Made by a program: the position numbers and the translations under genes
Shown here: in pieces, positions 6,386 to 63,668 of the stretch
Numbering within the stretch: the first letter of the stretch is position 1
How the letters are laid out: every line of letters begins with the position of its first letter
DNA from: Flavobacteriales bacterium
Lineage (GTDB): Bacteria > Bacteroidota > Bacteroidia > DT-38
Direction: 5' to 3'
DNA length: 64,000 bases
Assembly (NCBI GenBank): GCA_013214205.1
Contig: JABSPQ010000224.1
Coordinates: 53,756-117,755, forward strand
Notes under the pieces: model-generated
The model's input: only the letters and a program-made list of their open reading frames with translations
Told to the model about the DNA's origin: nothing
Databases searched by the model: none

Positions 6386-8905
6386 CTAAAAATTGAATGC
6401 AAAGTTTCCACGGATGGCAAAGTTAGTAACTCCTACACCATCTTCAAATTCTAAATCACCAACATTGTGATCTCGGTAGGTTAATCGCCAAATTGCATCT
6501 ATTCTAATTATTTTAAATATGTTCTCGATGCCAACACCAGCTTCCATGTATGGCTTTTTAGCAAGATTTACGCCAGAATTTGGGAACAACAAAATATCCT
6601 GATGCTTGCTATCCAACTTGCCATAAACACCTTTTGCATTCACTACCGATCTCCATTTCAACTTTCTTAAAGCAGGAACTTTATTCAAAATAAACCCTTC
6701 GAAATGATGCGCCACTGCCAGTGAAACATACTCATCGCTGATAAACTCAAAATAATTCATCAAGTTATAAGACGATTTATCGTAAAAGTAGCTCTCGTTT
6801 CCAGGATGCATTTCCAAAAGCGGATAAGGAACTCTACCCAATACCTTTCCATATTCTGCATTGAATTTGGTATTACCCACTGCACCCAATCTTATTTTAT
6901 CGGAAACATTAAATCTGAATTTATGGTATTGATACTTGCTGTTCAACAAATCTTTTATACCCACCGTGTAATCAAATTGGATAATTGGCGATGTGGTCCC
7001 TAAACTGATCCGATTGAACTCGCCAGAAACAAACTTCTCTTTGTGGGCAAATCGAATGTACATAGACAATTCAGACGTCCTCAGCTCATCTACATCCGAA
7101 AGTATATCTTCGTCGTAGAAGTTATATACCAAATCCCCTAACGGATTAAAAATTCTTTGCGCCATCGTAAGCCGGGTAGAGAAACCTTCCAGCCATTCTA
7201 TTTCATAGGCAAACTTGTACTCCTCAATGTTTGTAAGCTTATAATTTCTTGAAGTTCTAAAAATAGAGGTGAACGCATTATCTGTTTGCATTCCGTTGTT
7301 GCTCATTCCTAGCTGTTCCACGTCATTTTTATAGTGGATATCAATGGAGTTTCGCGGTTTTTTAGAGAGAAAATAAAGCACCCCACCACCGTATTTAACC
7401 TTGGTATCCCTAAATCCATATGCGGTATATGCGTCTATCATTGTTCGAGTACTAAACTCATTACTTGTTCTTACGCCTATTTTAGTTCTAACTCCCTCCA
7501 CGTCATTATAACTCACCAAACTATGATATGGTCCTATTTCGAACTTACCAAACTCTTTATAGCCCGTCATTACAGTAAATATTAACCCCTCGTACACCTT
7601 AAATGCCTTTAATGTCTTAAGGGTATCAATCATGTCGTAAATTCCTTGTTGGCGTTCATTTAGCTCTTCATGACGAGCCTCATCCCAAAATTCATCACCT
7701 CGATCACTCGAACCTTCTTCGACAATAATTTCATCTCCAATTTTGTAGAATTCGTCGGATCTTTTTTTATTGACTTTGATATTCTCATACGTGGTTGTTT
7801 TCCTACCAATAAAGCCAGTAACCCTTTTGGCCTTTTTCGAGATGTTAAAATCCATCATTATGTTATCCCGGCCCAACATCCAACCTTGATTATCTACCAA
7901 TACATACTCCTGTTCTATCCTAACATCGTTTACAAAATTCACATTCGCATCTTCTGTAATTTGCAACGTTGCCTTCTTAATTGCCCACGACGAATCGGCG
8001 ATCCACATATCACCTTCAAAAGTTAATTCCTGCTTTCTTTTAGCAACAAAATGAATTTTATAACACCACAAGTCGCCCAAACTGGTACTGTCGGTTAGAT
8101 AATATTTGTAAAAAAGCTTTCCATTATCCGCCGCTGGACTTATAAAGTTTTTGCCAAAAAGTAAAATGTAATTCGAATAGATATTAAAATGTTGGTACAT
8201 ATCGCCCATAAACTGCGCAACACTTTCATTCTCTGTACCAGCAATTCGAGTTCCTTTAATTATTTCCCGCTTAAGTTCTGGATTTTTCTGATAATACATT
8301 TCCGAAAGAGATTCTATCAAAAAGAACGGCAGGTACGGTTTTCCATCGATTGTATCTAAGTTTTGAAGCATGAATTTAAAAGGCTTGAGCAACTTATTAT
8401 TCATCATTTTCTCGGGCAGGTTATACATATCGAACTCTACCTTGTTGTACACTTCGTACTCGTAATAGTCGAACTTGCTCTTATCGTTAGCCTCTTTATT
8501 CTCCACCATTCCCTCTATTATGGCTAACGCAGGGTTAACTCCTGCAATAATTTGAACAACATCTAACTTAATGCTAGATTCTTTAAGCGGTATATTAATA
8601 ACCTGAACAACATTAGATTTTACAGCAACACTTTTAGGCAAATAGCCGATATAGGAAATTCTTAAAGAATCTACAGACAAGGTTGATTTGAGACTATAGT
8701 ACCCGTTAATATCCGACATGGTACCAACGGTTGTACCCCTAAATTGAATATTGGCAAACGGAACTCCGTCTCCACTTATGGAATCTGTTATTTTTCCCGA
8801 TACTGCGGTTTCTTGCCCGAAAGCAAAAGAAGAAACCAATAGGAATACTATTAAGAGCAGTTTATTAAAAAAAATGGTTTTGGTTATATGATCGCTCAGC
8901 TGCAT
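6386..8905 (-). CDS. Outer membrane protein with N-terminal carboxypeptidase-regulatory-like domain and C-terminal beta-barrel (DUF5686-like)
   Basis: Signal peptide with Q at +1; CarboxypepD_reg-like N-terminus (VSGKITDSISGDGVPFANIQFRGTTVGTMSDINGYYSL); long beta-rich body ending ...GNFAFNF. Confidence 0.55.
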   Translation of the reverse strand: MQLSDHITKTIFFNKLLLIVFLLVSSFAFGQETAVSGKITDSISGDGVPFANIQFRGTTVGTMSDINGYYSLKSTLSVDSLRISYIGYLPKSVAVKSNVVQVINIPLKESSIKLDVVQIIAGVNPALAIIEGMVENKEANDKSKFDYYEYEVYNKVEFDMYNLPEKMMNNKLLKPFKFMLQNLDTIDGKPYLPFFLIESLSEMYYQKNPELKREIIKGTRIAGTENESVAQFMGDMYQHFNIYSNYILLFGKNFISPAADNGKLFYKYYLTDSTSLGDLWCYKIHFVAKRKQELTFEGDMWIADSSWAIKKATLQITEDANVNFVNDVRIEQEYVLVDNQGWMLGRDNIMMDFNISKKAKRVTGFIGRKTTTYENIKVNKKRSDEFYKIGDEIIVEEGSSDRGDEFWDEARHEELNERQQGIYDMIDTLKTLKAFKVYEGLIFTVMTGYKEFGKFEIGPYHSLVSYNDVEGVRTKIGVRTSNEFSTRTMIDAYTAYGFRDTKVKYGGGVLYFLSKKPRNSIDIHYKNDVEQLGMSNNGMQTDNAFTSIFRTSRNYKLTNIEEYKFAYEIEWLEGFSTRLTMAQRIFNPLGDLVYNFYDEDILSDVDELRTSELSMYIRFAHKEKFVSGEFNRISLGTTSPIIQFDYTVGIKDLLNSKYQYHKFRFNVSDKIRLGAVGNTKFNAEYGKVLGRVPYPLLEMHPGNESYFYDKSSYNLMNYFEFISDEYVSLAVAHHFEGFILNKVPALRKLKWRSVVNAKGVYGKLDSKHQDILLFPNSGVNLAKKPYMEAGVGIENIFKIIRIDAIWRLTYRDHNVGDLEFEDGVGVTNFAIRGNFAFNF

Positions 8906-13192: not shown

Positions 13193-15172
13193 ATGCTCAA
13201 ACAGACTAAAAACACAATTTTAGCAACAATATTATTGTTGTTAAGCACAACGATGCTTCATGCGCAAACTGGCTTTAAATTTTCAGGCTGGCAAAATATA
13301 GCAGAAATCGGAGATGATCCTTCTATTCAAATTACCGGTAATGCTATTTCACTTGAAGCATGGATCTTCCCCACTTCTTTTAATCCAGACATAGATCTTT
13401 CCAATATTATAAATAAAGAACAAAATGTACCAGATAGAGGATTTATGTTCAGAATTGGTGGTGCAGGACATTTAAAACTTGTATTAGGCGACAACACATG
13501 GAATAACTATGAAACAGATAGCGTGCTTGAATTAAATGTATGGCAACATGTTGCTGCTACTTACGATGGCGAATATGTAAGAATGTTTGTTGATGGTGTT
13601 GTTGTTGACTCCACAGCAGCTTCGTTTGATATTGCGCCTTCGACTAACGTGCTTCGGATTGGTAATTCAGAAAATGGCTACAACAAGCATACTGGATACA
13701 TTGATGAGGTTAGAATCTGGAACGTGGCAAGAACTCAAGAAGAAATCATTGAGGACATGAACAGACATTATTGTACGCTTCCTCCTATAGGATTACAAGC
13801 TTACTATACTTTTGATGAAGGAACCGGGACAACGATTACAGATCTTTCAGGAAATGGAAATCATGGAGTCCTGCTAAGCGTGTTCGAAAGTAACTGGGTT
13901 GAAGGAGTTGCACTTGCAAAAGGAACTACAGGCAGCGTTACAGAAACTATTTGTGAAGAAAGTTACGAAGGCCCAAATGGCAAAACTTGGACTGACACTG
14001 ATATTTACATTGAAACTTTAACCAACCAATATGGTTGTGACAGTGTAGTTACTTACGACTTAACGTTTGAAACTAATCCGGTAATAGAATTAGGTGAAGA
14101 TCAAGATTTGTGTGATGGCGAAATGGCTATGCTTGACGCAGAAAACACAGGCGCAGATTACCTTTGGTCGGATGGTTCTACAGAACAAACGTTAGAAGTT
14201 TCTTCTGACAACATGTATTCTGTTACGGCTACAAACGCAGGTGCATGTACAGCTACGAGCGAAGTGATTATTTCTTATACAATGTATCCTATTGTTGATT
14301 TAGGACCACATCAAGAATTATGCGATGGTGAAATGACAATGCTTTACGCTGACAACTCAGGTGCCACTTATTTATGGTCGGATGGTTCTACTGAGCAAAC
14401 TTTAGAAGTTTATTTCGACGATATGTATTTAGTTACTGTTACTAATGGTGGGATATGTTCAAGTACAGGAGAGGTAATAGTATCTTATACTACTGCCCCA
14501 TACCTCGAATTAGGAAACGAAATACTTCTTTGTAATGGCGAAATGGTTACGTTAGATGCTGAGAATTCAGGTGCATCTTATTTGTGGTCGGATGGATCTA
14601 CAGATCGAACTTTAGAAGTTTATGATCAAGGCACTTATAATGTTATTGTTACTTACGGAGGAATGTGTTCAACAACTGATGGAATTTCAATTGATGCGCA
14701 TACAACAGATACAACAGTAAGTATAGTATCTGATATAACCTTCATGGCCGAATATGAGAGTCCTGCTACATTCGAATGGATTAATTGTAGCGATATGACA
14801 ACTGTTGGAACAGAACAAAGCTTTACAGCTATGGAAAATGGATCGTTTGCAGTTGTTATTACAGATGACTTTTACGGTTGTCCTAATACATCATCATGCT
14901 ACCAAGTTACCAACGTAGGAATTAATGAATCTGCTCAAACAAGATTGAGTGTTTATCCAAACCCTACGAGTAGTAGAATTAACGTTAACGTTGGCACTAA
15001 AGGCAACTTTAAGGTTAGGGTTACTAATGTGCGAGGACAAGTGGTACGAAGAGCAAGTGCTAAAAACACATCGCAGTATCAAATGGATGTTTCCGATTTA
15101 GGAAAAGGGATCTATTTCATTCATGTTGATGGCCGCGATAGATCGGATGTAATAAAGTTCGTTAAGAATTAA
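13193..15172 (+). CDS. T9SS-secreted adhesin-like protein: signal peptide, LamG/ConA-like lectin domain, three tandem 70-aa Cys-containing repeats, type-A T9SS C-terminal sorting domain
   Basis: Q at +1 after signal peptide; LamG_3-like W.HVAATYDG...RMFVDG; repeats ...LG...LC.GEM..L.A.N.GA.YLWSDGST..TLEV...; C-terminus LSVYPNPTSSRINVNV...GKGIYFIHVDG matches the Por secretion tail. Confidence 0.8.
   Translation: MLKQTKNTILATILLLLSTTMLHAQTGFKFSGWQNIAEIGDDPSIQITGNAISLEAWIFPTSFNPDIDLSNIINKEQNVPDRGFMFRIGGAGHLKLVLGDNTWNNYETDSVLELNVWQHVAATYDGEYVRMFVDGVVVDSTAASFDIAPSTNVLRIGNSENGYNKHTGYIDEVRIWNVARTQEEIIEDMNRHYCTLPPIGLQAYYTFDEGTGTTITDLSGNGNHGVLLSVFESNWVEGVALAKGTTGSVTETICEESYEGPNGKTWTDTDIYIETLTNQYGCDSVVTYDLTFETNPVIELGEDQDLCDGEMAMLDAENTGADYLWSDGSTEQTLEVSSDNMYSVTATNAGACTATSEVIISYTMYPIVDLGPHQELCDGEMTMLYADNSGATYLWSDGSTEQTLEVYFDDMYLVTVTNGGICSSTGEVIVSYTTAPYLELGNEILLCNGEMVTLDAENSGASYLWSDGSTDRTLEVYDQGTYNVIVTYGGMCSTTDGISIDAHTTDTTVSIVSDITFMAEYESPATFEWINCSDMTTVGTEQSFTAMENGSFAVVITDDFYGCPNTSSCYQVTNVGINESAQTRLSVYPNPTSSRINVNVGTKGNFKVRVTNVRGQVVRRASAKNTSQYQMDVSDLGKGIYFIHVDGRDRSDVIKFVKN
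14078..14707 (+). repeat. Three tandem 210-bp (70-aa) intragenic repeats inside the adhesin gene
   Basis: Repeat units start at 14078, 14288 and 14498 (ccg gta ata gaa / cct att gtt gat / cca tac ctc gaa); the conserved block ttatggtcggatggttctac is recognisable in all three copies, exactly in copies 1-2 and with 2 substitutions in copy 3; degenerate half-copies flank them. Confidence 0.8.
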
Positions 15173-20793: not shown

Positions 20794-20832
20794 TAAATCT
20801 TATTTAAAATATCAATCGGAACCGGCCAACAA

Positions 20833-23800
20833 TTAAAAGTCCAAACCTACAGAAAAATAAAATATTTTATCCTGTAGCACCCCGTCTTCCACACCCCATC
20901 CCCAATCTGCACGAATAAAGTAATTAGATAAAACACTCCTGAATCCAAATCCGTAGCCATAAATGATGGGCTCAGAATAATTTTTCAGCGTAATTTTCAC
21001 ATTAAAGTCGTCTATACAATCACCTTCCCTATCGCAAATTGGTTTCGAATTAGATTGATTTACATCCGAATCAGGCCAAACACCTACCCAAGCACTTCCT
21101 ACATCAAAAAATCCAATTATCTGGAAATTGGCAATAAACTCAGACCGGATTGGGCTAGTTGCAATGTATTTAAAAAACGGCAGTCGAAGTTCATTGGTTA
21201 CAATGGCATACGTGTTGCCTTTTCTAACATCTCTTCTAAACCCTCTAACAGATGTGGCATACGACTGAAACCTGTAGTTCTGCGTATTTTCTAATGCCGT
21301 AAAGTTCTCGTTTGTATTCTGAAACTGACTCATCCAATTGTCTACAGCACCAAGTCTAAACAACTCTTTCATACTTCCGAAAGAACTTTTTGCATGAAAT
21401 CTTGTGGCCAAAATAAACTCGCGATGAATTTTTTGATAATGTCGGTAATCCAAAGAAACCTTTAGCATTGTCTCCTTCGGATCTTTCAACTCCTGAAAAA
21501 CCTGAAGTCCCCATTTGGCCCTAGTGCCATAAAAAATATTCACCCCTTTGATTAGCGTATTATCAAAAACAAAATCGATGTTGCCGCCCGTAAAGTATGA
21601 TCTTTTGTCGGGCGTTTCCAAACCTGCTCGATCCTTCACCATCTCAATTTCATTAATATAAATTGCGGTGACACCAAACCTCATGCTAAACACCTCGCTA
21701 AACGGCCATTTTAACGTGTATTGAATTTGATTGAACCGGGAGTTGGTATAACTATGCTCGGAAGGAATTTGCGACGGGTTAATGCTTTGTCTCAAAAAAC
21801 CCAAGGTTTTATCCATGCGTTTTTTAACATCCTTAAACACCAAAAATGATTCATTGTCGCTATTAGAAAGCAAACTAAGTTCGGTATTGAGCCCTCCAAC
21901 AATTCTATAATCTTCAAATAAGTCGCTCATCCCAACCTGAAGGATGGTATTTGTTAACGGCTGAGATACTGTGCTTTGATACGAAAAGCTCACAATACTG
22001 TTGTCGAGCGCCCTCATCGAGAAGAAATCATTGGTAAAAATTGTTTTATAAGCCCGCTTCGGTGGAAGAACAAATTTTCGAACAACAGTGTCTGCCATGG
22101 CACTATCCATATCAATATCAACCAAAGCATCTGGCTCTAAAGTTTCATTATCCTCAAAGTCAAAAATGTAATTATCAATATTAACCTCGTGTTCTGTTTC
22201 CTTTTCCTCTTCCTCATATCCCTCAATAACAGACTCTTTATCCTCCTTAAATATTTTCATCAACGAATCACTCGTAAATTCAATAGCCTTAGCCGGCGTA
22301 CCAATCATTATAGATTCTTCCTCTTCCAAAATGGCAGCATCTACATTTACAATCTCACCCTTAAAAATTCTATTCCTCCCATTTTCGTATACCACTTGAA
22401 CATATTTCCCATTTTGAGGTGAGTAATCATGTTCTTGAATGCTCCTATTAAAATCGGTAATTCGGTAAGACTTAGAAAAATGCTTGTAATGAACCAATGT
22501 GTCTACATGCGAAATAGAACTATCTAGTTTAATAATATAACGTTCGTATTGACCTCTTTTATCACTTAAAAAAGTCATGTACTCCTTGTTGTATAAATCA
22601 GGTTCCGTTTCATTCCAATCCTTAGAATAAGTTAATCTAGTAAGTACAGGGTCGCTATGCTCATTGTCGTAAACAAACAAGTCCAACTTATCGAACTGAG
22701 GATCCATTTTTTGTCTATCATCAAATTGAATTGTGTCACTCGTTCTGTTAGAACTAAATACAATTTTTGTTCTTCCCTCCATAAACTTTGGGGTCAAATC
22801 ATCATATACGTCGTTTGTTACACGTTTTATCTCAGTGGAAGCCAAGGTGTATACAAAAATATCCGACTGCCCTTTCATCACTGCTGAGAACACCAACTTT
22901 CTGCCGTCCTCAGAATAATCCATCGACAAAACCTTTTCGAATTTAAATACCTCTCGCTTACTAAATTTCTTCTCGTCTAACTTATAATGCGAAATCCAGA
23001 TACTCCCTTTTCGCTCCGTTATCATCGTAAATAAACTCCCTGTAGGATGCCATGCCAACAATGGATAAGACTCATCTGCAATTCTGTCTAATTTATGATC
23101 CACTCGTAATACTTTCTTAGGCCGCTTGCTGGTAGAAAGGTCTTTCATCCAAACTTTATACTGCCCCATAATGTTACTCGCATAAATTAGTTTTTCCCCA
23201 TCAGGACTAATTCTAGCTTGATAATATGAATAATCAGTCTTAGGTCTTTTAATTAATGGATCTCCAAATTCTCCGTTACCATTTTCCTCCATCCCTTCGT
23301 ATACCGCAGAATTGTAAGCCAAGTACTCGATGTATAAATTCCTGAGAGAAATCCCTAAAACATACTGAAAGCCACTTTCAATATTCCTACTTAAATGTGT
23401 CATGTAAAGAATATTGGCTATCACTTTATCGCCATAAACCTGAGAAATATATGCCCAAAACGAATGACCTAGCTCAATTTGCCTATCCCCCATCACCTTA
23501 TTAAACTTGTCGTAGCTGCCAAGCATAAAGCCATCTCGGATTTTATTATTTATTCCGATTTCATTTGGGTTCGTCATATAGGAAATCAAACCTTGCGAGT
23601 ACCACACCGGCAAGGTGATAAATACCTCACTTCGGATGCGTTCCTTAACATCACCGCCATACATAATGTTATTCAAAATAACTTCGGTAATAACCTGCCT
23701 AATCTGTTCGTGAAACTGATTGTAATCACCCTCGAAATACAAAAACACTTTCGATCCTTGAATTCGAGCTTTACCCGCCATACTAATTTGATTCTCGCTA

Positions 23801-24177
23801 GAAATCCCGATGTTGCTCTGCTGAAAATCTGAAAGTTTATTGTAAACAATCAGTTGAATTTTATCTTTTAAATCAAAATTTAAACGGTTTTCAACCTGTT
23901 CAATAGAAGCTTCAACATATTTAGCGGCCGATTGTGCCAGTTTTTCTCCCCCTTGATAAAAGAAAATGTCGAAATCTTCGAAATTATAAAAGAACCAATA
24001 TCGCTCTTCAAACTGAATTCTGTTTTTCCCAAACTCACTGCTATTAGGGTTCATTTGCCCCTGAGAAACAAGCGGGCACACGAATATGAGCAAAGTAAAA
24101 ACTAACGAAATTAGGTTTCGTAAATTCTTCTTCAACAATGTGATTTCCGAAAAGTTCAATTTATCAAATCTGAACAT
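20833..24177 (-). CDS. Large outer membrane protein: N-terminal domain, TolB/PD40-like beta-propeller repeats, C-terminal Omp85/BamA-type beta-barrel
   Basis: Signal peptide with Q at +1; repeated KLIYASN..GQYKVW / KLVFSAV.KGQSDIFVY TolB-like blades; C-terminal VRGF...G...NELRLPF...GFFDVGSAW...GYGFGFR...ADWGWG...F matches the Omp85 barrel. Confidence 0.5.
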   Translation of the reverse strand: MFRFDKLNFSEITLLKKNLRNLISLVFTLLIFVCPLVSQGQMNPNSSEFGKNRIQFEERYWFFYNFEDFDIFFYQGGEKLAQSAAKYVEASIEQVENRLNFDLKDKIQLIVYNKLSDFQQSNIGISSENQISMAGKARIQGSKVFLYFEGDYNQFHEQIRQVITEVILNNIMYGGDVKERIRSEVFITLPVWYSQGLISYMTNPNEIGINNKIRDGFMLGSYDKFNKVMGDRQIELGHSFWAYISQVYGDKVIANILYMTHLSRNIESGFQYVLGISLRNLYIEYLAYNSAVYEGMEENGNGEFGDPLIKRPKTDYSYYQARISPDGEKLIYASNIMGQYKVWMKDLSTSKRPKKVLRVDHKLDRIADESYPLLAWHPTGSLFTMITERKGSIWISHYKLDEKKFSKREVFKFEKVLSMDYSEDGRKLVFSAVMKGQSDIFVYTLASTEIKRVTNDVYDDLTPKFMEGRTKIVFSSNRTSDTIQFDDRQKMDPQFDKLDLFVYDNEHSDPVLTRLTYSKDWNETEPDLYNKEYMTFLSDKRGQYERYIIKLDSSISHVDTLVHYKHFSKSYRITDFNRSIQEHDYSPQNGKYVQVVYENGRNRIFKGEIVNVDAAILEEEESIMIGTPAKAIEFTSDSLMKIFKEDKESVIEGYEEEEKETEHEVNIDNYIFDFEDNETLEPDALVDIDMDSAMADTVVRKFVLPPKRAYKTIFTNDFFSMRALDNSIVSFSYQSTVSQPLTNTILQVGMSDLFEDYRIVGGLNTELSLLSNSDNESFLVFKDVKKRMDKTLGFLRQSINPSQIPSEHSYTNSRFNQIQYTLKWPFSEVFSMRFGVTAIYINEIEMVKDRAGLETPDKRSYFTGGNIDFVFDNTLIKGVNIFYGTRAKWGLQVFQELKDPKETMLKVSLDYRHYQKIHREFILATRFHAKSSFGSMKELFRLGAVDNWMSQFQNTNENFTALENTQNYRFQSYATSVRGFRRDVRKGNTYAIVTNELRLPFFKYIATSPIRSEFIANFQIIGFFDVGSAWVGVWPDSDVNQSNSKPICDREGDCIDDFNVKITLKNYSEPIIYGYGFGFRSVLSNYFIRADWGWGVEDGVLQDKIFYFSVGLDF

Positions 24178-60884: not shown

Positions 60885-63668
60885 ATGTTTAAATCACTAT
60901 TGTCTCTCCTAATGCTACTTGCATTTACCTTTGGAGCACCCGTTGCGATTGCCGCAAAAAAAACAGAAAAGAAAGTATTAAGTCCTGATGATTTCAAAAG
61001 GTGGAGTAATCTTACTTCGCAAAAAATTAGCGATGATGGCAACTGGGTCACTTTGGGTTACGATTACAAAATGGCATTTCATAAAGATGACGATGAAAGG
61101 AAACTAATCATTAAGCAACTCAACGGCGACAAAAAATATATAATTCCGTTTGGTTCAGAACCCACCTTTTCCGACGATTCTAAGTGGGTTGCATACTTTA
61201 TTCAACTTACAAAAGCAGAAGTAAAAGAATATGAGGACGAAGATTTAACTGTTACATACAAAGCGCAGCTACTCAACTTGGCCACTGGAGAAAAAACAAC
61301 ATGGAAAAACGCTTACAATATAAATTTTAACAAAGGCTCTTCGGCTTTAATCATAAAGAAAAAAGAATCGGAGGATGAAAGAAAATACAATGGAAATGAC
61401 ATAATCATTAGAGACCTCGTTAAAGACTATGATCACTTTGTTGGAAGTGTATCTCAGCACAAGCTCAACAAGCCTGGCACACACATGGCGTATATCAGAG
61501 ATGCCGAAGACAGAACAGGAAACGGAATTTATGTAATGGACCTTAAAACGGGTGCTAGACTTCCTGTTGAACAAGACACGTTGAATTACAGCGGAATTAA
61601 TTGGTCAGAAAACGGGAATTCACTTGTTGCTTATAAATCCATAAAAAACAAAAAAGGCAAAGTAGAATCATCTAAACTAGTTATTGTTTCTAAAGCGAAC
61701 ACCAACCAACCTACTGTAAAAATCGTAGCGAATTCAGACTTATCTACACTTGCTGAAGGATTCCAAATCAGCAATTTTTCCACGTTAAAATGGAACAAAC
61801 AAGGGGACAAATTGTTTTTTGGAATCAAGGAGAAAAAGAAAGAAGCAGAAAAGAAAGAAGACTCCAAAGAAGGTAAAAAAGGAAAAAAAGACCCGATTGC
61901 CGACTTAGACATTTGGCACTGGGACGATGATAGAATTCAAAGCCTGCAACGAAGACAAGGAAAAGCAGACAAGAAGAGAACATTCAAATGTCTGTACGAT
62001 GTAGCTACATCAAAGTATGTTCAGCTCACCAACGAAAGTATGGAAGAAATAGAAATCAGCGAAAATGGTGTTTGGGGAATAGGAAGAAACGAACACAAAT
62101 ATGTATCTGATTGGGATGTAGAAAAAGCGGATATCTACCGTGTTCATATTTCAACTGGAGAATGTTTTTTAATTGAGGAGGCATTAAAACGATGGTTTGA
62201 ATTATCGCCAGATGGCAAACACTTTTTATATTGGAAAGAAGCTCACATTTGGGATTACAATTTGGAAACAGGAACAAAGACAAACCTTACTAAAAGCGCA
62301 CCTGTTAGTTTTGTAAATCAAGAATGGGACTACTTTGGAGAAAGGCCATCTTACGGATTTAGCGGTTGGACAAAAGACGGTAAGGCGGTTATTCTCAATA
62401 CCAGATATGATTTATATTATCAGCCTTTAGATGCCAGTGCGGCTAAAAATTTAACTGCTGGAATTGGAACATCAGGAGAAATTAGATTAAGAATTAAAGA
62501 CTTAGACTCAGAAGAAGATTATATCGATCTGGCTAAACCTGTCCTATTATCTGCATACGGACAATGGACAAAAAAGTCGGGTTATTACAAACTTACTCTT
62601 GGAGAAATTGGGACAACAGAACCTGAGGAATTAATTTTTGTAGATCAGCACATCGGTAATTTTTATAAGGCAAAAAAAGCCGATAAGTATTATTATAGCA
62701 TGCAAACTTTTAGCAACTCGCCGAACATGCACGTCTCCAATGGTACTTTTAAATCACCTAAAAAAGTGAGTAACTCCAACCCTCAGCATAGCGAATACCT
62801 CTGGGGAAAAAGAATTCTTTTTGATTACACCAATTCTAAGGGTGTAAAATTACAAGGCACATTAGCCATTCCTGACACTTATAAAGAAGGCGAAAAACTG
62901 CCTATGATGGTTAACTTCTACGAGAAGAAATCTCAAAACCTGCACAAGTATGTTAACCCCGTATATGCTAGATATTCAGGACAGTTTCACCCTCAAATGC
63001 TTAGTGAAGGCTATCTTATTATGGAGCCCGACATTCATTATAATGTAGGGTCAACGGGAGATGACTTTTTAGAATGCTTAGAGGCAGCAACCAAAAAGGT
63101 AATAGAAATGGGATACGCAGATCCAAAGAAAGTTGGACTTGGCGGTTTTAGCTTTAGTGGTTATGGTTCTAATTATGTAGCTGTGAGATCTAAGATGTTT
63201 GCAGCCGTTTTTGCAGGTGCTGGTGTATCCGATTTGTTGAGTGATTTTAATCACCTATGGGGATATTCGCCAGATAGACGCTTGGGAGCTGGAGTAAATG
63301 CGCATCGCTACAACATTCATGGGCAACAACGAATGGGAAGTAATCCACATGACGATTTTGAACTTTTCAAAAGTCAGTCTCCATCCACTTATGTAAAAGA
63401 CATGGAATGCGCTTTGCTTTTGCTCCAAGGAGAATCAGACGAATTGGTTGCCTGGATTGAAGCGGTTGAATTTTATAATGCACTTCGATTTAATGGTAAA
63501 AACGTAATCTTACTTTCGTACGCCAAAGAGCCTCATGGAATCTATCAGCAGAAAAATCGATATGATTTGCACCAACGCACGTTCGACTTCTTTAATCATT
63601 ATTTAAAAGGAGAACCTGCAGCGGATTGGATTAAAAATGGAGTTCCATTTATTGATAAGAAAAAATAA
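60885..63668 (+). CDS. S9 family serine peptidase (prolyl oligopeptidase / acylaminoacyl-peptidase-like) with N-terminal beta-propeller region
   Basis: Signal peptide; propeller-like repeats; C-terminal alpha/beta hydrolase with the nucleophile elbow GGFSFSGYG and conserved D/H; Lys/Glu-rich low-complexity insert at about 61830..61900. Confidence 0.75.
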   Translation: MFKSLLSLLMLLAFTFGAPVAIAAKKTEKKVLSPDDFKRWSNLTSQKISDDGNWVTLGYDYKMAFHKDDDERKLIIKQLNGDKKYIIPFGSEPTFSDDSKWVAYFIQLTKAEVKEYEDEDLTVTYKAQLLNLATGEKTTWKNAYNINFNKGSSALIIKKKESEDERKYNGNDIIIRDLVKDYDHFVGSVSQHKLNKPGTHMAYIRDAEDRTGNGIYVMDLKTGARLPVEQDTLNYSGINWSENGNSLVAYKSIKNKKGKVESSKLVIVSKANTNQPTVKIVANSDLSTLAEGFQISNFSTLKWNKQGDKLFFGIKEKKKEAEKKEDSKEGKKGKKDPIADLDIWHWDDDRIQSLQRRQGKADKKRTFKCLYDVATSKYVQLTNESMEEIEISENGVWGIGRNEHKYVSDWDVEKADIYRVHISTGECFLIEEALKRWFELSPDGKHFLYWKEAHIWDYNLETGTKTNLTKSAPVSFVNQEWDYFGERPSYGFSGWTKDGKAVILNTRYDLYYQPLDASAAKNLTAGIGTSGEIRLRIKDLDSEEDYIDLAKPVLLSAYGQWTKKSGYYKLTLGEIGTTEPEELIFVDQHIGNFYKAKKADKYYYSMQTFSNSPNMHVSNGTFKSPKKVSNSNPQHSEYLWGKRILFDYTNSKGVKLQGTLAIPDTYKEGEKLPMMVNFYEKKSQNLHKYVNPVYARYSGQFHPQMLSEGYLIMEPDIHYNVGSTGDDFLECLEAATKKVIEMGYADPKKVGLGGFSFSGYGSNYVAVRSKMFAAVFAGAGVSDLLSDFNHLWGYSPDRRLGAGVNAHRYNIHGQQRMGSNPHDDFELFKSQSPSTYVKDMECALLLLQGESDELVAWIEAVEFYNALRFNGKNVILLSYAKEPHGIYQQKNRYDLHQRTFDFFNHYLKGEPAADWIKNGVPFIDKKK

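Follow-up and report, generated by a model that had tools for sequence, protein, structure and literature searches.

The window analysed here is a stretch of 64,000 nucleotides from contig JABSPQ010000224.1 of a Flavobacteriales bacterium, and the gene under study encodes a predicted outer-membrane protein in which a TolB-like propeller is joined to an Omp85-type β-barrel. The gene lies on the minus strand at positions 20833–24177 and is a single uninterrupted open reading frame (ORF) of 1114 codons with an ATG start; the frame on the opposite, plus strand over 20833–24177 is riddled with stop codons. The preliminary description of this DNA, made from the sequence, had given the ORF at 20833–24177 with 1114 residues and left its strand unstated. 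The ORF is real, and all the motifs that had been quoted from it (SVRGF, NELRLPF, GFFDVGSAW, GYGFGFR, RADWGWG and the terminal F) are found in the translation. The features of the gene, with the basis of each in brackets, are as follows.

20833–24177, minus strand: the whole ORF, 1114 amino acids plus the stop codon (reading of the ORF; homologues of like length)
24058–24177, minus strand: N-terminal signal peptide region, residues 1–40 (read from the translation)
23278–24033, minus strand: gluzincin (MA-clan) metallopeptidase-like domain without zinc ligands, residues 49–300 (structure search and alignment)
23674–23688, minus strand: TEVIL, the degenerate equivalent of HExxH, residues 164–168 (position in helix 152–173 and spacing)
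22348–23265, minus strand: six-bladed TolB/PD40-type β-propeller, residues 305–610 (profiles and model)
22078–22344, minus strand: disordered linker, residues 612–700 (model confidence and alignment)
22162–22185, minus strand: linker motif (I/V)-D-I-(N/D)-N-Y-x-F, here VNIDNYIF (alignment of 59 homologues)
20836–22077, minus strand: 16-stranded Omp85-type β-barrel, residues 701–1114, ending in Phe (model and motifs)
21238–21246, minus strand: loop-6 RGF motif, residues 978–980, between strands 11 and 12 (alignment and model)
21097–21111, minus strand: strand-13 FxDxG motif, F1023-F-D1025-V-G1027 (alignment and hhalign)

Conservation figures refer to a family alignment of 59 homologues with ~38% identity to the query. 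The AlphaFold2 model built on this 59-member alignment has a predicted local distance difference test score (pLDDT) of 77 and a predicted template modelling score (pTM) of 0.75, and shows five parts: a signal helix, an α/β domain (residues 49–300), a propeller (305–610), a low-confidence linker and a barrel (714–1110). Mean pairwise identity among the 59 homologues is 57% in the gluzincin-like domain, 56% in the barrel, 48% in the propeller and 21% in the linker.

The barrel has 16 strands in the AlphaFold2 model (714–1110), the last of which is short and ends at Phe-1114. A long loop between strands 11 and 12 (943–988) bears RGF, as part of a M/V-R-G-F motif at 977–980, with R978 and G979 invariant in 59/59 homologues and F980 kept in 58/59. 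Likewise, F1023, D1025 and G1027 of the strand-13 motif are invariant (59/59), and the terminal F1114 is conserved in 58/59. The RGF loop between strands 11 and 12 and the FxDxG motif on strand 13 constitute the canonical Omp85 layout known from BamA structures. Because these motifs are invariant or nearly so in 59 homologues at ~38% identity, they are far beyond chance. A Foldseek search matches E. coli BamA barrels (E ~3e-9; TM-score 0.56–0.58 per target), BamA proteins, that of F. johnsoniae included, rank first among the structural matches of the barrel, and the fold is nearer to BamA than to the TpsB translocators. In an hhalign comparison of the family profile with E. coli BamA, the strand-13 FxDxG stands in register with FWDMG of BamA, and the distance from the conserved GG to the loop-6 RGF is longer by ~30 residues.

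The propeller consists of six four-stranded blades in the AlphaFold2 model. PD40 (E 9e-5) is the sole type of Pfam match in the window protein, and the NCBIfam TolB profile matches over residues 375–480 (E 8.5e-15) with 54.6 bits, against an equivalog cut-off of 343.15 bits. Sequence searches of the PDB, whether with the protein or with the 59-member profile, return only TolB, and Foldseek matches TolB with an E of 5e-10. TolB is therefore the closest solved relative of residues 305–610 by both sequence and fold.

In the N-terminal part of the protein, residues 49–300 adopt a gluzincin fold according to the structure search, with templates including 3qnf and 4fgm. Specifically, the position equivalent to HExxH falls in the long helix 152–173 and reads TEVIL here and A/T-(E/R/Q)-x-x-(I/L/V) across the family. 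In each of the 59 aligned homologues, A/T/S and I/L/V take the place of the two His of this putative HExxH, the third-ligand position, just before the invariant G196, is variable (Q/K/N/E), and the position of the catalytic Glu is kept in about half of the members. HExxH is absent anywhere in residues 49–300 of the window protein. The spacing from the HExxH-equivalent to the helix with the invariant W192-Y-x-x-G196 is 27–28 residues, as in M9 collagenase. Read from its sequence, the domain is a pseudo-peptidase, presumably non-catalytic; its conservation, equal to that of the barrel in spite of the lost zinc ligands, argues for a binding function that has been kept and for a sheltered position in the periplasm.

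A HExxH string does occur in 17 of 206 relatives and was rejected as a zinc site, since its place is where the helix begins, in the non-conserved 'GDH-E-x-x-H'. The His of this 'GDH', residue 152 at an active-site-type helix start, is Tyr in the window protein and in its closest relative.

The protein begins with what reads as a signal peptide, with the n-region KKNLRN, the hydrophobic core LISLVFTLLIFVCPLV and the c-region SQG, all read from the translation. The AlphaFold2 model places a helix at residues 9–37, followed by a disordered stretch. Homologues begin ~12–15 residues later, so that the gene may instead start at the TTG of codon 14; the N-terminus reads as a signal peptide under either start codon. 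Between propeller and barrel, the linker of the window protein is strongly acidic, with 29 D+E versus 6 K+R, has a pLDDT <50 over residues 626–698, and varies in length from 71 to 140 residues across the family. Within it, Y670 and F672 of the linker motif are invariant and I667 is present in 57/59 homologues, and, set in a linker otherwise unconserved and disordered, it resembles a short linear docking motif.

POTRA domains are missing from this architecture. POTRA families give no match at E≤1 in the window protein and none is listed among the homologues, and the model contains no β-α-α-β-β unit between residues 612 and 713, upstream of the barrel. Most of what the preliminary description had said of the domains is borne out by these results. 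An Omp85-type barrel is present, with 16 strands in the model and with the loop-6 RGF and strand-13 FxDxG kept; TolB/PD40-like blades are matched by the PD40 and TolB profiles and by fold, and form a six-bladed propeller; and structure prediction resolves both the propeller and the C-terminal barrel. Its statement that the N-terminal 800 residues lack POTRA-like repeats is right as to POTRA and too long as to the residues, as the non-barrel part comprises ~700. Canonical POTRA domains, which it had named as the mark of a simple BamA, are matched neither at E≤1 nor in the model.

Taken as a whole, the protein very probably represents, in Bacteroidota, the 'WD40-like' Omp85 subfamily, which has no POTRA; we base this assignment on architecture and templates rather than on clustering of sequences. 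This subfamily (WD40-Omp85) is one of those into which Heinz and Lithgow split the Omp85/TpsB superfamily in 2014 (PMC4104836), and the novelty implied by the earlier account does not hold, given that the architecture was catalogued there as 'WD40-like Omp85' (PMC4104836).

The family is large. More than 2000 homologues were found, the best 120 listed being 1005–1160 amino acids long, and every named homologue among the matches listed comes from a Bacteroidota metagenome-assembled genome (MAG). The names of cluster members are MAG annotations only, with no cultured organism among them. A pattern scan with one genome per GTDB species finds at least 585 encoding loci in Bacteroidota. With the barrel alone as query, 1,072 representatives (50% clustering) are found at E≤1e-3 and 491 at E≤1e-30; almost all have 1,050–1,150 amino acids, and the shorter ones resemble fragments at contig ends, indicating that the barrel occurs essentially only in proteins of about 1,050–1,150 amino acids. 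An exact-sequence look-up gave no match for the window protein or for one relative (P0001).

Members are labelled "hypothetical", "PD40 domain-containing protein", "Protein TolB" or "Tol biopolymer transport system component". Relatives have precomputed Pfam matches to propeller families (Tricorn_N, Tricorn_2nd and PD40), and the families listed for 43 members at E≤10 do not include PF01103. Because PF01103 misses the Omp85 barrel, annotation systematically falls short for this family, and about a thousand sequence clusters now labelled "TolB", "PD40 domain-containing" or "hypothetical" merit re-annotation as Omp85-family outer-membrane proteins.

The gene neighbourhood was analysed in the best 80 related loci, and gene order around the gene is conserved across them. 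A metallo-β-lactamase (MBL)-fold hydrolase lies divergently upstream in 38 of the 71 loci with enough flank. Downstream, a TauE-like small membrane protein (~127 amino acids) stands between the gene and that of an M20 amidohydrolase in 32/72 loci, and the M20 gene beyond it is present in 49/81. In one clade their place is taken by a YhbP-like protein and a ~900-residue protein that, by sequence, looks like a ribonucleotide reductase. In the window, the MBL and M20 neighbours are present and the TauE-like gene is absent, leaving a gap of only 39 nucleotides (20794–20832). The block tatC, SIS/CBS, recQ, M20, the gene under study, MBL and hemL is common to the window and a distant genome (L081). 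The conserved neighbours are cytoplasmic or housekeeping proteins, and the 80 related loci have no conserved neighbour among the TamB, BamD, Skp, type IX secretion system (T9SS), gld, tol or pal genes. The link to T9SS or gliding that had been suggested for the protein thus finds no footing at the locus, where the conserved neighbours are the MBL-fold hydrolase, the TauE-like protein and M20, and no T9SS or gld gene.

Wide distribution, conserved synteny and ordinary base composition suggest a vertically inherited housekeeping gene. GC content is uniform, at 36–39%, across the region, and horizontal acquisition of the gene was ruled out on this ground.

Other genes of the window lie around this block. 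The segment 13193–19606 holds a T9SS-sorted Laminin_G_3 protein, a 363-residue ORF without a Pfam match and two GT22/PMT_2-type glycosyltransferases; it separates recQ from M20, which are adjacent in L081, and looks like a lineage-specific insertion into the syntenic block. The T9SS-sorted protein, at 13193–15172, lies within this non-conserved insertion. At 6386–8905 (minus strand), adjoining an ABC ATPase gene and tatC, is the gene of an 839-residue protein with CarboxypepD_reg followed by DUF5686 (E 1.5e-70), presumably an outer-membrane protein and typical of Bacteroidota.

The order of domains (signal peptide, zinc-less gluzincin domain, six-bladed propeller, flexible linker of ~90 residues, 16-stranded BamA-type barrel) suggests how such a protein might work. 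The β-barrel assembly machinery (BAM) would insert the barrel, with both barrel ends in the periplasm. In a 16-stranded barrel both termini face the periplasm, which makes a periplasmic position of the N-terminal module probable; there it would hang tethered by the linker. Gluzincin substrate clefts hold extended chains against an edge β-strand, and the propellers of TolB, BamB and oligopeptidases are binding platforms or gates. By analogy, it is plausible that the N-terminal module acts as a non-catalytic receptor for polypeptides or for a partner, with the propeller gating or scaffolding the gluzincin cleft. Such a receptor would replace POTRA and would hand client polypeptides or a partner protein to the barrel for insertion into, or translocation across, the membrane. 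The protein would then be a housekeeping envelope-biogenesis factor working alongside BamA, not a substitute for BamA.

We regard subfamily identity together with this mechanism as the best explanation overall, with a probability of about 0.6. The mechanism of receptor plus insertase, taken for itself and drawn by analogy, is tentative; a distinct role in assembly or secretion, as the preliminary description had proposed, is plausible as a hypothesis. Bacteria, mitochondria and plastids all depend on Omp85 proteins to build their outer membranes, and if the receptor idea is true, a widespread Bacteroidota protein would make another kind of periplasmic recognition module open to study. A bolder version is speculative: the family might constitute, next to BamA and the TamA-like lipoproteins, a third Omp85 machine found throughout the phylum Bacteroidota, in which the dead, propeller-gated gluzincin cleft would be a receptor for unfolded clients and the NYxF of the linker would dock on the module, the barrel seam or a partner. 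If true, this would be an uncharacterised mode of Omp85 substrate recognition hidden under the labels 'TolB' and 'hypothetical'.

Several results weigh against the reading of the protein as a WD40-like Omp85 with a receptor module. Of the profiles that the earlier account had named, PD40 is matched, whereas Bac_surface_Ag (PF01103) has no match in the window protein at E≤1, probably because of the ~30-residue insertion in loop 6. A PDB sequence search with the 59-member family profile finds no BamA at E≤10, and the hhalign comparison with E. coli BamA alone yields an E of 0.11, which is not significant; homology to Omp85 rests on the modelled fold together with the motifs. A periplasmic place for the N-terminal module is deduced from the strand number of the barrel, and is in that measure probable. 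The equivalence of the zinc site is drawn from the position of the helix and the 27–28-residue spacing, not from residue-level superposition, and residue 152 (~23722–23724, minus strand), which is His in 53/59 homologues, is unaccounted for. Furthermore, the neighbours supply no functional partner, and no functional study of any member of the subfamily was found in the literature searched.

An alternative that we consider unlikely is that the protein is an outer-membrane-anchored analogue of TolB, in which the barrel would serve mainly for anchorage and the propeller for binding a peptidoglycan-associated protein of the Pal/OmpA type; the protein would then tether the envelope or act in constriction without handling polypeptides. 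TolB being the nearest solved relative of the propeller, and the naming of members as 'TolB' or 'Tol biopolymer transport system component' in databases, speak for it. However, the similarity spans only part of the propeller and scores 54.6 bits against the cut-off of 343, the N-terminal domain of TolB is absent, and there are no tolQRA or pal neighbours. A simple anchor would also have no need of strict invariance in loop 6 and strand 13, though barrel stability could explain it.

Quite improbable is a self-exporter of the type Vd or PlpD-like kind, whose barrel would carry the protein's own peptidase-like and propeller module out to the cell surface while the linker threads the pore. An Omp85-type barrel with an N-terminal passenger that is not POTRA does resemble PlpD (PMC4104836), and a disordered linker of 71–140 residues precedes the barrel. 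The passenger, on the other hand, equals the barrel in conservation across the phylum (57%), an unusual level for domains exposed at the surface; a POTRA domain is present in PlpD and absent from the window protein; and the barrel is structurally nearer to BamA than to TpsB translocators. Surface display in Bacteroidota normally proceeds through lipoprotein export signals or T9SS, which counts against self-export, and the window protein lacks a T9SS C-terminal domain.

It is very improbable that the protein is an active periplasmic metalloprotease carried on an Omp85 barrel and serving the quality control of outer-membrane proteins that have misfolded. The gluzincin fold of the N-terminal domain, the retention of the catalytic-Glu position in about half of the members and the combination of propeller and peptidase, which recalls tricorn and prolyl-oligopeptidase and goes with the Tricorn_N and Tricorn_2nd matches of homologues, would fit such an enzyme; but both His ligands are replaced in every aligned member, the third ligand is variable, and the domain of the window protein contains no HExxH. 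Elsewhere in the window, a 927-residue S9 prolyl-oligopeptidase-family protein with an N-terminal propeller (60885–63668, plus strand) is a genuine propeller-plus-peptidase enzyme, unrelated to the present protein.

A simply divergent BamA or TamA orthologue, for which the best structural matches of the barrel to BamA proteins, including that of F. johnsoniae, would speak, is already effectively refuted, as POTRA is absent by profile and in the model, PF01103 is unmatched, no TamB (DUF490) gene adjoins the gene in the window or the 80 related loci, and Heinz and Lithgow cluster this architecture apart from BamA and TamA (PMC4104836). The earlier judgement that the protein is neither BamA nor TamA is upheld by the lack of POTRA and by the Foldseek and structural matches of its parts.

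Comparison with the WD40-like reading's nearest known systems places each module. The propeller shares with TolB its six PD40-type blades, and TolB is its best match in sequence and fold; the window protein differs in lacking the N-terminal domain of TolB, in being fused to an outer-membrane barrel and in having no tol-pal context. The N-terminal domain shares its fold with the M1 aminopeptidases and M9 collagenase (gluzincins, clan MA), from which it differs in having neither HExxH nor a conserved third ligand. BamA of Bacteroidota carries POTRA domains. Unlike BamA, the window protein has no POTRA, has a ~30-residue insertion in loop 6 and is PF01103-negative, and it bears instead a pseudo-peptidase, a propeller and a disordered linker. 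Bacteroidota BamA has been structurally characterised as the core of a BamAD complex (PMC13067283; PMC12611786; PMC12578637), and two of these papers, on Bacteroidota BAM structures from 2025, leave the WD40-like subfamily unmentioned (PMC12611786, PMC12578637).

PlpD (type Vd) and 'Metallo-Omp85' resemble the window protein in joining an Omp85-type barrel to an enzymatic or enzyme-like N-terminal domain that is not POTRA (PMC4104836). Their passengers, a patatin in PlpD and a PF00149 phosphoesterase in 'Metallo-Omp85', both differ from the N-terminal module here, and PlpD still has a POTRA domain, which the window protein lacks.

The closest system is WD40-Omp85 itself. Its members have N-terminal PD40 repeats with TolB as the closest structure and were likened to a BamA-BamB fusion; their templates were a BamA or TamA barrel, TolB, and peptidases of the F3, ERAP1, aminopeptidase-N-family or collagenase kind (PMC4104836). 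The window protein has the same modules in the same order, that is, an MA-clan aminopeptidase- or collagenase-like domain, a TolB-like PD40 propeller and a BamA/TamA-like barrel, without POTRA. The templates 3qnf and 4fgm are identical in the two analyses, F3, aminopeptidase A and collagenase are reached through other PDB entries, and TolB and BamA recur. In addition, a Pfam profile of PD40 only, without PF01103, was reported for 38/62 WD40-like members (PMC4104836), and the window protein shares this profile with many of them. For minor Omp85 subfamilies the text of that paper suggests a patchy occurrence, conserved only at genus level and shaped by horizontal gene transfer (PMC4104836), in contrast to the window clade, which is phylum-wide with conserved synteny. 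Loss of the zinc site is not discussed there (PMC4104836). Our additions to the 2014 catalogue are modest, and consist of the zinc-less peptidase domain, the Bacteroidota-wide distribution with conserved synteny, the conserved linker motif and a barrel missed by annotation.

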